The notes under the pieces were generated by a model. It was given only the letters and a program-made list of their open reading frames with translations. It did not search any database and had not been told where the DNA came from. The position numbers and the translations under genes were made by a program. From positions 137 through 64,136 of the forward strand of contig JANLHB010000016.1 of the NCBI GenBank assembly GCA_024654625.1: a stretch of DNA of 64,000 nt, given 5' to 3'. Below are positions 48,363-49,912 of this stretch, one piece after another (position 1 is the first letter of the stretch; the number at the start of each line of letters is the position of its first letter). This DNA is from Patescibacteria group bacterium (GTDB taxonomy: Bacteria; Patescibacteriota; Minisyncoccia; GCA-002772825).

Positions 48363-48375
48363 CTATTTAAATCAA

Positions 48376-48396
48376 ATCCAAGGGGTCCCCTTGGAT
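48376..48396. repeat. REP family 1 copy 1 (ATCCAAGGGGTCCCCTTGGAT)
   Basis: Perfect 21-bp palindrome, extended to tcaaatcca...tggatttga. Confidence 0.8.
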
Positions 48397-48489
48397 TTGA
48401 TTGAATTTGATTTTAGAGTGAGATTTTAATTGACGAGTTTGTATTTTATCAGAATTTTGTTAAAATATAGCTACCTATTATTAAATAGT

Positions 48490-48528
48490 ATCCAATCTAA
48501 CGTCCAAGGTGTCACCTTGGACTTGGAT
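48490..48528. repeat. REP family 1 copy 2 (degenerate: TCCAAGGTGTCACCTTGGA inside ATCCAA...TTGGAT)
   Basis: Diverged palindrome with the same outer arms. Confidence 0.5.
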
Positions 48529-48547
48529 TATTAAAAAATAGAATCAT

Positions 48548-49192
48548 ATGAAAAATAAGTATATATTAATAATTACTATTTTGATAATCGTGGCTGGCGC
48601 TGGTTTTTATGCTTGGCGCGATCTAAATAAATTACCACCACCACTAATCCAAGGGGCCCCCTTGGATTCTGAAAATAGTAGCAATTTAGGTCAAATTAGC
48701 GAGAAAATGCCAGATCTAGACAGAGATTTCTATTTTAAAGACAGTCTTCCTTCTGACGTTAAAGAGATTTATATATCAAAGATAAATACTACAATAGATG
48801 AGATTAAAGAAAATGCTGATTTTATTGATAATTGGCTTGTTTTAGGCGTTTATTTAAAGGCCATAGGGGATTATAGCGCCGCAGAAGATATGTGGCAGTA
48901 TGCAGGCGTATTAAGGCCATTAAACTCTACCTCTTTTGCTAACCTAGGTAACTTATATACTTATGAGCTAAAAGATTATCAAAAGGCTGAAGTAAATTTT
49001 AAGAAAGCACTAGCCAATGACCCTTCAAAGATTTATATTTACACTAATTTCTATGAGCTTTATAAATATGGTATGAAAGATGATGCAAAGGCAAAAGCCA
49101 TCTTAGAGGAGGGTATAGCCTCTAATCCGGACACTTCCGATGACCTAAAGTCCCTTTTCTCCATGCCTATCCAAGGGGTCCCCTTGGATTAA
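48548..49192 (+). CDS. Membrane-anchored TPR-like repeat protein containing two in-frame REP copies
   Basis: N-terminal TM, helical repeat region (AEDMWQYAGVL, KAEVNFKKALANDP). REP copies are read as LIQGAPLD near the N-terminus and PIQGVPLD as the last codons. Confidence 0.4.
   Translation: MKNKYILIITILIIVAGAGFYAWRDLNKLPPPLIQGAPLDSENSSNLGQISEKMPDLDRDFYFKDSLPSDVKEIYISKINTTIDEIKENADFIDNWLVLGVYLKAIGDYSAAEDMWQYAGVLRPLNSTSFANLGNLYTYELKDYQKAEVNFKKALANDPSKIYIYTNFYELYKYGMKDDAKAKAILEEGIASNPDTSDDLKSLFSMPIQGVPLD
48647..48667. repeat. REP family 1 copy 3 (ATCCAAGGGGCCCCCTTGGAT)
   Basis: 21-bp palindrome lying inside ORF 48548-49192. Confidence 0.75.
49169..49189. repeat. REP family 1 copy 4
   Basis: ATCCAAGGGGTCCCCTTGGAT immediately before the stop codon of ORF 48548-49192 and 33 nt before the RAYT start. 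Confidence 0.8.
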
Positions 49193-49221
49193 TTTAGAAT
49201 GAGAGTTATAATTGTTAACAC

Positions 49222-49887
49222 ATGGAACGTAAAATCCAATTTTCTATAGGTGAATTTTATCATATTTATAATAGAGGAAATGATAAAAGAGGTATATTTT
49301 TAAATGGTTCTGACTTTGAAAGATTTATGAAGCTTTTGTTTGTCTGCAATAATAATAAATCTGTTGTATTTAAGATTATCCAAGGGGTCCCCTTGGATAG
49401 GATTGATAGAGGGGAAACATTAGTGGATATTGGGGTTTATTGCTTGATGCCGAATCATTTCCATATACTAGTTAGAGAAAAGACCGAAGGAGGGATAACT
49501 AAGTTTTTGGGTAAGTTATCCACAGGGTATTCTATGTATTTTAATAAAAAGAATGAGAGGACAGGGAAGCTTTTTGAGGGAGTTTTTAAGGCCACCCATG
49601 TGGATAATGATGAATATTTGAAGTATTTATTCGCTTATATCCACTTAAATCCTGTTAAATTGATCGATCCGGAGTGGAAAGAAAAGGGCATTTCTGACAT
49701 AGAGAAGACAAAAGAGTATTTAAATAGCTATAAATATTCAAGTTATCTTGATTATATTGGGCAAAACAGGGAAGAAGCAGTGATCCTGAACAAAAGTGAG
49801 TTTCCGGAGTATTTTGTTGATTTTAAGGAATTCGATGATTTTATAAGTGAATGGTTAAAGTATCAAACTAAAAAGGTGACACTTTAA
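49222..49887 (+). mobile_element. REP-associated tyrosine transposase (RAYT; IS200/IS605 TnpA-like HUH Y1 transposase)
   Basis: YHIYNRGN, HUH motif MPNHFHILV, TGKLFEGVFKATHVDNDEYL and YIHLNPVK. Flanked by inverted-orientation REP copies (centre T at 49169, centre A at 49892) with a further copy inside. Confidence 0.8.
49378..49398. repeat. REP family 1 copy 5 (inside the RAYT ORF, read as IIQGVPLD)
   Basis: ATCCAAGGGGTCCCCTTGGAT. Confidence 0.8.
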
Positions 49888-49891
49888 GACT

Positions 49892-49912
49892 ATCCAAGGG
49901 GACCCCTTGGAT
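49892..49912. repeat. REP family 1 copy 6 (opposite orientation, centre A)
   Basis: ATCCAAGGGGACCCCTTGGAT, 5 nt after the RAYT stop and followed by a ggatttggataggatt partial echo. Confidence 0.8.

Follow-up and report, generated by a model that had tools for sequence, protein, structure and literature searches.

A probable REPtron- or TIRtron-like locus of Patescibacteria: a cis-confined set of hairpins around and within a Y1 HuH gene

Introduction

Repetitive extragenic palindromes (REPs) and the REP-associated tyrosine transposases (RAYTs) are the textbook case of a domesticated transposase that co-evolves with short DNA substrates. In the described REPtrons, a single-copy and vertically inherited gene encodes a protein of the Y1 HuH fold, inverted cognate palindromes co-evolve with the gene, and REPs are dispersed over intergenic positions, typically in more than 100 copies per genome (Nunvar, 2010; Ton-Hoang, 2012; Messing, 2012). 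Here we describe a related locus in 64,000 nt of contig JANLHB010000016.1 from a Patescibacteria group bacterium (this whole stretch is referred to as the window, and positions are given in its numbering). The locus comprises a gene for a Y1 HuH tyrosine nuclease/transposase and a set of short palindromes, with the 21-nt sequence ATCCAAGGGGNCCCCTTGGAT, that lie around and within it. It is probably a system of the REPtron or TIRtron kind, belonging to a Y1 clade specific to the Candidate Phyla Radiation (CPR), with a hairpin set that is confined in cis and evolves in concert.

The locus resembles REPtrons in its Y1 HuH fold, for which the E. coli TnpA_REP structure 4ER8 is the best match, in its Y-x3-NP tyrosine motif, in the single-copy, vertically inherited gene with inverted cognate palindromes, and in the co-evolution of hairpin and gene. 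Unlike REPtrons, it has perfect palindromes without a bulge, one cognate copy at a fixed in-frame site within the gene, and a protein that falls below the NCBIfam RAYT cut-off and carries a C-terminal domain of about 70 extra residues, and it lacks a dispersed REP population of the REPtron kind in the window and in 315 kb of distal flank around related genes.

A second comparison is with the TIRtrons, in which low-copy terminal inverted repeats (TIRs) bracket the gene of a TIR-associated tyrosine transposase (TIRYT) and may overlap the gene ends, with few or no dispersed copies (Di Nocera, 2013, PMC3733652), and with TnpA_Y1 proteins of subclass 2.1, or Bertels group 1 (Quentin, 2018, PMC6006769). 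The proteins share NH[YF]H, Y[IV]HLNP, an 'SS' tail and a length of about 220-240 aa; by inspection against Table 1 of PMC6006769 only, the protein described here has NHFH, YIHLNP, YKYSSY and 221 aa, against a median of 238. No REP-like structures were reported for subclass 2.1 (PMC6006769), whereas hairpins are nearly universal in the present clade, which moreover is restricted to CPR. The GGGGWSAS motif of TIRs was not seen in the hairpins of the Y1 loci, and a C-terminal domain of the Bac_DnaA_C, HTH_23 or HTH_28 type, a trait of TIRYT and subclass 2.1 proteins, gave no Pfam match at E <= 0.1.

Results

Hairpins at three sites of the Y1 gene

In the window, the Y1 gene is accompanied by an upstream (U), an internal (I) and a downstream (D) hairpin. 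The features of this core of the locus are:

49222..49887, + strand: Y1 HuH tyrosine nuclease/transposase gene, 221 aa, with H79-F-H81, Y139-IHLNP and a C-terminal YKYSSY tail
49169..49189, no strand: U hairpin, starting 53 nt upstream of the Y1 gene and inverted relative to D; also encodes residues 208-214 of a tetratricopeptide repeat (TPR) protein
49377..49399, no strand: I hairpin, in frame, encoding Y1 residues 53-59 (IQGVPLD)
49890..49914, no strand: D hairpin, 12-bp arms, starting 3 nt past the Y1 stop codon
49883..49933, + strand: duplicated segment derived from I, TTTAAGAyT + hairpin + AGGATT..GATA, holding an 11-nt tandem duplication TGGATAGGATT
49207..49212, + strand: TATAAT box resembling a -10 element, read from the sequence, ending 9 nt 5' of the Y1 ATG

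A pattern search of the window found ATCCAAGGGGNCCCCTTGGAT exactly at 48376, 48647, 49169, 49378 and 49892, against an expected count of 0.00 in shuffled sequence, and nothing further even when 3 mismatches were allowed. A relaxed search for the core added a single site at 48504, which belongs to a variant palindrome, GTCCAAGGTGtCACCTTGGAC, at 48502-48524. A first-pass annotation of this DNA had counted six copies; five of these are exact, and the sixth lies at 48502-48524 instead of 48490 and is not degenerate, but a perfect palindrome with 10-bp arms and two compensated changes relative to ATCCAAGGGGNCCCCTTGGAT. All six are inside 48370-49914, and the other ~62 kb of the window is without a copy in both the exact and the relaxed search. 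Their central bases are, in order, T, (T), C, T, T and A, as had been read before, and their feet are TCAA/ATCC, TAAC/GTCC, ACTA/ATCC, GCCT/ATCC, GATT/ATCC and GACT/ATCC. DNA folding gave hairpins of -8.3 to -15.3 kcal/mol for the six copies (z = -3.3 to -5.7). The copies at 49169 and 49892 are mutually inverted, with 49166-49189 and 49892-49915 complementary at 24 of 24 positions including flanks, and the gene is thus bracketed by inverted palindromes, as the first-pass annotation had stated. It had also argued against a CRISPR array, correctly: perfect palindromes, an irregular spacing of 126-522 nt and three coding copies rule this out. Integron attC sites were rejected as well, as the hairpins are too short and perfectly symmetric.

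For comparison we used 80 metagenomic loci with relatives at 51-72% identity, together with three syntenic close relatives (loci L085, L086 and L088). Most of 83 loci have a U and a D hairpin that match each other. In 29 loci, the window counted, the locus-specific palindrome recurs within the locus, and most of these show U, I and D: U starts 26-68 nt 5' of the ATG, I starts at +153 to +174, and D is no more than a few tens of nt from the stop codon. Loci without I still have U and D hairpins with a common stem and the AGG...CCT core.

The stems are private to each locus. A locus has its own I stem at U in 25 of 38 cases and at D in 22 of 37, while stems taken from other loci are matched at U in 3.7% and at D in 3.1% of comparisons. 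Stems differ even between syntenic orthologous loci (CCAAGGGG in the window, CAAAGGAC in L086 and CCAAGGT in L088), and the copies therefore change together within a genome. The D region of the window repeats the I hairpin with about 20 nt of its coding flanks (36 nt at 94% and 16 nt at 100% identity), which, as judged from this sequence similarity, points to the copying of a patch larger than the hairpin; extended flanks common to I and D were found in the window only and are not general across the loci.

In one metagenomic locus, four U-type hairpins (CTTCAAGGTcgaACCTTGAAG) lie upstream of the Y1 gene at a spacing of 52-56 nt (L075:1-225). This is the lone case that looks like a CRISPR array, and its C-rich 'spacers' are themselves repeated, with a period of ~107 nt; it is a higher-order tandem array resembling bacterial interspersed mosaic elements, not CRISPR.

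Sequence and predicted fold of the Y1 protein

The earlier call of 49222-49887 as a RAYT-like Y1 HuH protein holds. The reading frame matches PF01797 (Y1_Tnp) at 31.5 bits against a cut-off of 23, over residues 68-141 only, and both H79-F-H81 (the HuH motif) and Y139 are invariant among 143 homologues. By the criterion of PMC6006769, the tyrosine motif YIHLNP is of the class-2 type, Y-x3-NP. Modeling with AlphaFold2 from the alignment of the 143 sequences yielded a predicted local distance difference test score (pLDDT) of 92.8, and this model was used; an alignment of 26 sequences had given a pLDDT of 48. The model comprises β1 (residues 12-19), αA (29-41), short helices at 50-53 and 58-60, β2 (68-75), the HuH strand (79-86) and a helix carrying Y139 (130-141), and the protein has a C-terminal domain of ~70 extra residues. 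In a Foldseek search with the model, the best hit was 4ER8, the E. coli TnpA_REP protein with a REP hairpin (probability 1.0, TM-score 0.63), followed by TnpA of IS608, ISDra2 and IS200; the structures 2A6O, 2XM3, 2VJV and 2F4F were likewise hit at probability 1.00. The predicted fold is RAYT-like. A profile search of the PDB with the Y1 sequences gave nothing at E <= 1, and weak matches to ISDra2 and 4ER8 at E <= 10.

Close homologues of the protein number more than 7,800, with lengths of 216-240 aa, and every named one is from Patescibacteria/CPR. The family is very abundant in metagenomes, with 428 clusters at E <= 1e-30 in a library clustered at 50% identity.

In the model, the I peptide sits in the connection between helix αA and strand β2, upstream of the HuH strand. 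In E. coli TnpA_REP, αB and αC form the hairpin-binding surface, and the αA-β2 connection of the E. coli RAYT is the part that holds αB. This topological analogy provides a lead as to where the I-encoded segment may lie relative to the hairpin-binding surface.

The internal hairpin is fixed in position and frame

The first-pass annotation had reported that three copies are read in frame, and they are: residues 34-40 of the TPR protein (IQGAPLD), residues 208-214 of the same protein (IQGVPLD, followed by the stop codon) and residues 53-59 of the transposase (IQGVPLD). It had read the copies as active REP proliferation that remodels protein termini. Spelled out, this view is that a currently proliferating REP/REPIN family, mobilized by its RAYT, has recently inserted copies into the transposase gene and into both ends of the TPR gene. 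For the transposase, such an insertion does not agree with the alignment of 26 homologues, in which the heptapeptide column is ungapped and conserved (consensus VVFKTIQGLxLDKIxRGE). The I hairpin is length-neutral within the clade, across a family of 50-85% identity. We scanned 84 loci for perfect hairpins by arm length, in bins of 5 codons. Arms of at least 7 bp centered at codons 51-60 were present in ~58% of the loci, against 0-2% in nearly all other bins and 7% at most, and arms of at least 9 bp in ~31%, against 0% elsewhere with one exception at 1%. In 43 of 44 cases the base at the center of the hairpin falls on codon position 2. The copy is therefore locked in position and frame, and is an old, family-wide and maintained feature rather than a fresh REP insertion.

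The core of the I hairpin, AGG-N5-CCT, is invariant and its outer stem variable. In an alignment whose rows were chosen for having a hairpin, the stem pairs show 86 both-sided changes against 30.8 +/- 4.3 in shuffled alignments (0 of 500 shuffles reach the observed number), with a covariation score of 0.527 against at most 0.106 for slid partners, and very few G-U pairs. The unbiased evidence for I consists of the positional scan and of a codon test on 36 loci picked by peptide motif only. This test bears on the idea that a conserved x-G-x-P-L-D peptide gave rise to the internal palindrome as a by-product and that the flanking copies are unrelated to it, an idea that draws on the conservation of IQG(L/V)PLD in close homologues and on the reverse-complement codon pairs of I/D, Q/L and G/P. 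At this site, however, synonymous choice is pushed towards the palindrome (p about 1e-19): NCC is used in 32 of 36 loci versus 17% in the rest of these genes (p = 9e-20), TTG/TTC in 33 of 36 versus 21% (p = 9e-19), and xxA in 34 of 36 versus 65% (p = 1e-4). What is constrained is therefore the DNA and not the peptide. Moreover, the peptide changes freely with the outer stem while the palindrome stays (IQGLALD, PIGLPY, QGRTLE, EGLTF, RGSTSG, QGGAL and others), and the same locus-specific stem recurs outside the gene. Together these observations rule out a peptide by-product, to which we assign a negligible probability.

A peptide compatible with the palindrome is found at the I site in ~69% of the 143 family proteins. 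More distant relatives have longer inserts there or are missing the segment (for instance P0262-like relatives). The αA-β2 connection is thus a permissive site, at which the hairpin was probably acquired early in the clade.

Intragenic palindromes of this sort have a precedent in tnpA_REP genes of subclass 2.4, in which in-frame REP insertions are known (PMC6006769). In both cases a cognate palindrome lies in a peripheral, variable region of the transposase gene with the frame intact; the present one differs in that it encodes residues 53-59, upstream of the HuH motif (H79), at a fixed codon, adds no length and matches the flanking copies. This precedent favors REP proliferation, as do additional in-frame copies in distant members of the family: in P0317, VRGETSD occurs twice, once at the I site and once past the Y motif, and the two peptides are consistent with two in-frame copies of a palindrome of the GTCCGAGGTgaaACCTCGGAC type, as judged from the protein alone.

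Four loci have particularly long perfect palindromes at the I site, with 13-17-bp arms and up to 35 nt (L024:511-543, L083:4162-4196, L026:4156-4184 and L036:4153-4181). These encode 10-12 residues, and their full-length form has no second copy in the locus; the U hairpins of L083 and L026 match I in the inner core only.

The upstream hairpin overlaps a predicted promoter

Of 66 loci, 55 have a U hairpin no more than 120 nt upstream; the median distance between its 3' end and the ATG is 26 nt. In related loci, the start of a TATAAT-like box falls mostly at -12 to -14 relative to the ATG, -12 being the commonest position. In the window the layout is TTGGAT (in the right arm of U), 17 nt, TATAAT, 9 nt and ATG. 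This geometry of box and start codon predicts a leaderless or near-leaderless Y1 mRNA, with U covering the -35/spacer region and lying outside the transcript. The promoter argument is based on the -10 geometry across the loci and not on a scan for sigma-70 promoters.

Such an arrangement does not fit well with the view that the hairpins act as RNA, in mRNA stability, attenuation or termination, with a purely regulatory association with the Y1 gene. I and D do lie within the predicted transcript, hairpin copy 1 (see below) scores as terminator-like, and REPs are known as 3'-untranslated region and mRNA elements in E. coli. Yet U is placed 5' of the -10 box and hence is not part of the predicted leaderless transcript, G-U pairs are very rare in the stems, which are almost exclusively Watson-Crick, D copies are generally without a T-run, and identical copies occur in both orientations. 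We consider a role as RNA highly unlikely.

Hairpins around the TPR gene

The three remaining copies in the window, together with U, enclose or lie within a TPR gene directly upstream of the Y1 gene:

48370..48402, no strand: hairpin copy 1, with the core 21-mer at 48376-48396 and arms extended to 16 bp; -15.3 kcal/mol
48502..48524, no strand: variant hairpin GTCCAAGGTGtCACCTTGGAC, ending 23 nt 5' of the TPR start codon
48548..49192, + strand: gene for a membrane-anchored TPR-repeat protein, 214 aa, Pfam TPR_8 and related matches; the last 7 codons are the U hairpin
48646..48668, no strand: hairpin in the N-terminal linker of the TPR protein, encoding residues 34-40 (IQGAPLD)

Copy 1 follows directly on the intrinsic terminator (48325-48362) of the gene for the surface protein upstream, and itself scores as terminator-like. 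A hairpin is present at the equivalent position in L085, L086 and L088, after the same conserved terminator.

The two coding copies in the TPR gene differ in age. The orthologues of the TPR protein end in ...SNNF and a stop codon, with the hairpin 8-31 nt further downstream. In the window ~38 nt including the ancestral stop codon are missing, and the frame runs through U to a TAA just beyond it. The C-terminal IQGVPLD is therefore new, in line with the first-pass annotation, which had proposed that a hairpin supplied a new C-terminus, and its absence from the orthologues favors REP proliferation; as the alignment indicates, it arose via the ~38-nt deletion and not via an insertion. The N-terminal copy, a recent insertion under the proliferation view, is common to orthologues at >=70% identity (FQGPTLE, IQGESLD, VQGDPLD), with a perfect palindrome, GTCCAAGGGGaCCCCTTGGAC, at the same +99 position in L085, and is therefore old.

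Palindromes that are tolerated in frame in loops, linkers and termini are also known from the Rickettsia palindromic elements (RPEs; Ogata, 2000, as cited in PMC3733652) and from REPs in host genes (Di Nocera, 2013). The corresponding sites here are the TPR linker, the TPR C-terminus and, outside the window, a glycosyltransferase gene (L001) and a C-terminal tail (L002; see below). RPEs are 100-150 bp long, numerous and without a tie to a Y1 gene, in contrast to the ~21-bp, low-copy hairpins clustered at a nuclease gene.

L088 ranks second among the closest relatives, with a Y1 protein that is 82% identical, and the TPR gene is missing from it altogether (L088:4783-5000 against window:48287-49221). 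The upstream terminator and the first hairpin are kept and the Y1 gene follows almost at once, a layout that suggests loss or gain of the TPR gene, by deletion or insertion, between hairpin copies.

Inheritance of the gene and confinement of the hairpins

The order surface protein, TPR protein, Y1 protein, small membrane protein and large protein is kept in L085 (85% identity) and L086 (70% identity), and partly in L088. The conserved gene order argues for vertical inheritance of the Y1 gene. The window is without a second Y1 gene, there is no adjacent tnpB (the neighbors are the TPR protein and the small membrane protein), and neither the Y1 gene family nor the 21-mer was present on the viral contigs searched.

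We consider it very unlikely that the locus is an autonomous insertion sequence (IS) of the IS200/IS605 type, with U and D as left and right subterminal hairpins and the whole unit from U to D transposing. Such an element would account for the tight bracket, in which U starts 26-68 nt 5' of the initiation codon and D is at the stop, for the similarity in fold to the TnpA proteins of IS608, ISDra2 and IS200, and for the abundance of the family in metagenomes. However, IS200/IS605 elements occur in multiple near-identical copies at variable sites and frequently with tnpB, whereas this gene is present once in 64 kb, and the gene order around it is kept in relatives at 70-85% identity. Their transposases have Y-x3-Q and consist of a core of ~150 aa, as opposed to YIHLNP and 221 aa with a C-terminal domain (motif classes as in PMC6006769), and the present hairpins are perfect palindromes with U and D inverted, not direct, imperfect hairpins on one strand.

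Dispersal of the hairpins was searched in 64 kb of this genome and in up to 10 kb around each relative. In 73 loci, 179 hairpin copies lie within 500 nt of the Y1 gene, compared with 12 in the 315 kb beyond, and four of these 12 are more than 1 kb from the gene. Elsewhere, the exact 21-mer was found in only three species-representative genomes, all of them CPR, on four contigs in total and with 1-2 copies per genome. The palindromes that flank a RAYT-like gene in inverted orientation would fit REP proliferation, as would the same 21-mer in other CPR genomes, where the genes concerned are unrelated and two of the sites are coding. Against it stand the position- and frame-locked, length-neutral internal copy, the N-terminal TPR copy shared with orthologues, the capture of the C-terminal copy by deletion, and the scarcity of copies in the rest of the window and in the distal flanks. 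Within the window the 21-mer is confined to the locus and orthologues keep the peptide, the two outcomes that the first-pass annotation had itself named as refuting its view. The active proliferation that the first-pass annotation had read from the six copies is in our view unlikely.

The sites elsewhere are diverse. In a Yanofskybacteria metagenome-assembled genome (MAG), the 21-mer lies within a family-1 glycosyltransferase-like gene, where it is read in another frame as YPRGPLG (L001:1775-1795). In the same MAG, a 279-aa protein has it in its C-terminal tail, which is variable (L002:3433-4272, - strand); the homologue of this protein in a Nomurabacteria MAG is without it, and there an identical 21-mer is found upstream of a 132-aa gene (L004:3657-5023). 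The L002 and L004 clusters are homologous (279/282-aa and 156/132-aa proteins of unknown function) and the positions of the 21-mer in them differ.

Other features of the window

Large predicted surface or secreted proteins are encoded on either side of the locus (44738-48286, 1182 aa, and 50670-55460, 1596 aa), and their orthologues also flank it in L085 and L086. The GC skew of the whole window (1-64000) is positive along nearly its full length and accumulates steadily, and the long open reading frames are almost all found on the + strand; this places the window inside a single replichore, its genes being co-oriented with replication. This position is of relevance for a Y1 enzyme, which is expected to act on lagging-strand template DNA. 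At 7506-8079 the window encodes a bacterial class A RNase P RNA (124 bits), which with 574 nt against a 367-position model must contain large insertions.

Discussion

The locus would be the home site of a Patescibacteria-specific Y1 HuH clade that is RAYT/TnpA_REP-like in fold and in its Y-x3-NP motif, and would carry a small private set of the enzyme's cognate hairpins, each with the invariant AGG-N5-CCT core and a locus-specific outer stem. U would cover the core promoter, as a rule 15-35 nt 5' of a leaderless start, where it may act as an operator or insulator of the Y1 gene; I would be accommodated in frame in the permissive αA-β2 connection, and D at or just past the stop codon. The Y1 gene would be inherited vertically as a single copy, with the hairpins remaining close by and without genome-wide spread. 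The copies may be kept identical via the enzyme, by cut-and-rejoin on single-stranded hairpins, or via short-patch conversion. Copying within the locus would then lead to concerted evolution, to divergence between genomes and to an I peptide that changes along. In the window, the TPR gene has three further copies around it, and the ~38-nt deletion beside U fused the TPR frame to the hairpin. The arguments for this REPtron- or TIRtron-like system, which we regard as probable, are the architecture of the locus, the lock on position and frame, the covariation and codon bias, the synteny, the local confinement and the fold.

Several points weigh against it. The proposed binding or cutting of these hairpins by the Y1 protein is suggested by their position and by analogy only. 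The protein scores 36.3 bits with the NCBIfam RAYT equivalog NF047646, below the cut-off of 80, and the GT[AG]G foot of canonical RAYT hairpins is absent, the feet varying between loci. No fixed loop orientation of U, I and D was found across the loci, and this sits uneasily with a Y1 mechanism that is strictly strand-specific. The sigma-70 consensus scan did not call a promoter at U (TTGGAT matches at 3 of 6 positions), and the covariation rows were, as said, selected for hairpins. With regard to confinement, the stretches covered may be compatible with a modest dispersed hairpin population. On the four contigs elsewhere no Y1 gene lies within 4 kb of the 21-mer, two copies being coding and two intergenic, and with these sites away from Y1 genes, low-level mobility exists.

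A different reading, which is possible but which we judge doubtful, is that the intragenic hairpin is a working cis-site and that the Y1 enzyme uses the substrate copy in its own gene together with U or D. The hairpin might serve as a self-limiting switch, by nicking or excision of the I-D or U-I segment, as an origin-like site whose nicking allows the flanking copies to be re-templated, with the 42-nt I-derived segment past the stop codon (49883-49933) as a footprint, or as an autoregulatory roadblock. HUH initiator genes that hold their own nick site include gene A of phiX174 and repC of pT181, with their replication origins. In these, as here, the hairpin or nick site of the HUH nuclease is within its own coding sequence; they are Rep-type origins of circular replicons, whereas the present gene is a chromosomal Y1 gene with extra flanking copies. 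Since the hairpin also encodes a surface segment of the protein, in the αA-β2 connection, such a cis-site would tie the substrate physically to the protein and oblige the two to co-evolve.

Literature searches on RAYT or IS200 in CPR/Patescibacteria returned nothing relevant. In the literature searched we found no published description of a Y1 clade that extends across CPR and is almost always bracketed by hairpins, of a cognate copy within the gene, 5' of the HuH strand, that is locked in position and frame and co-varies with the flanking copies, of a copy that overlaps the promoter of a leaderless gene, or of dispersal that is nearly absent.

For a REPtron- or TIRtron-like system, this clade would reduce the substrate to two or three gene-adjacent copies, one of them written into the gene. 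The locus thereby offers a compact natural system in which the enzyme and the promoter-overlapping, intragenic and terminal sites are comparable across hundreds of genomes. It indicates that Y1 proteins resembling subclass 2.1, reported without REPs, can have cognate hairpins. For annotation, it cautions that an in-frame palindrome in a gene is not necessarily a recent insertion. For the organisms that carry it, the hairpins may reshape neighboring genes, with a new C-terminus arising by deletion and the loss or gain of a TPR gene between copies.

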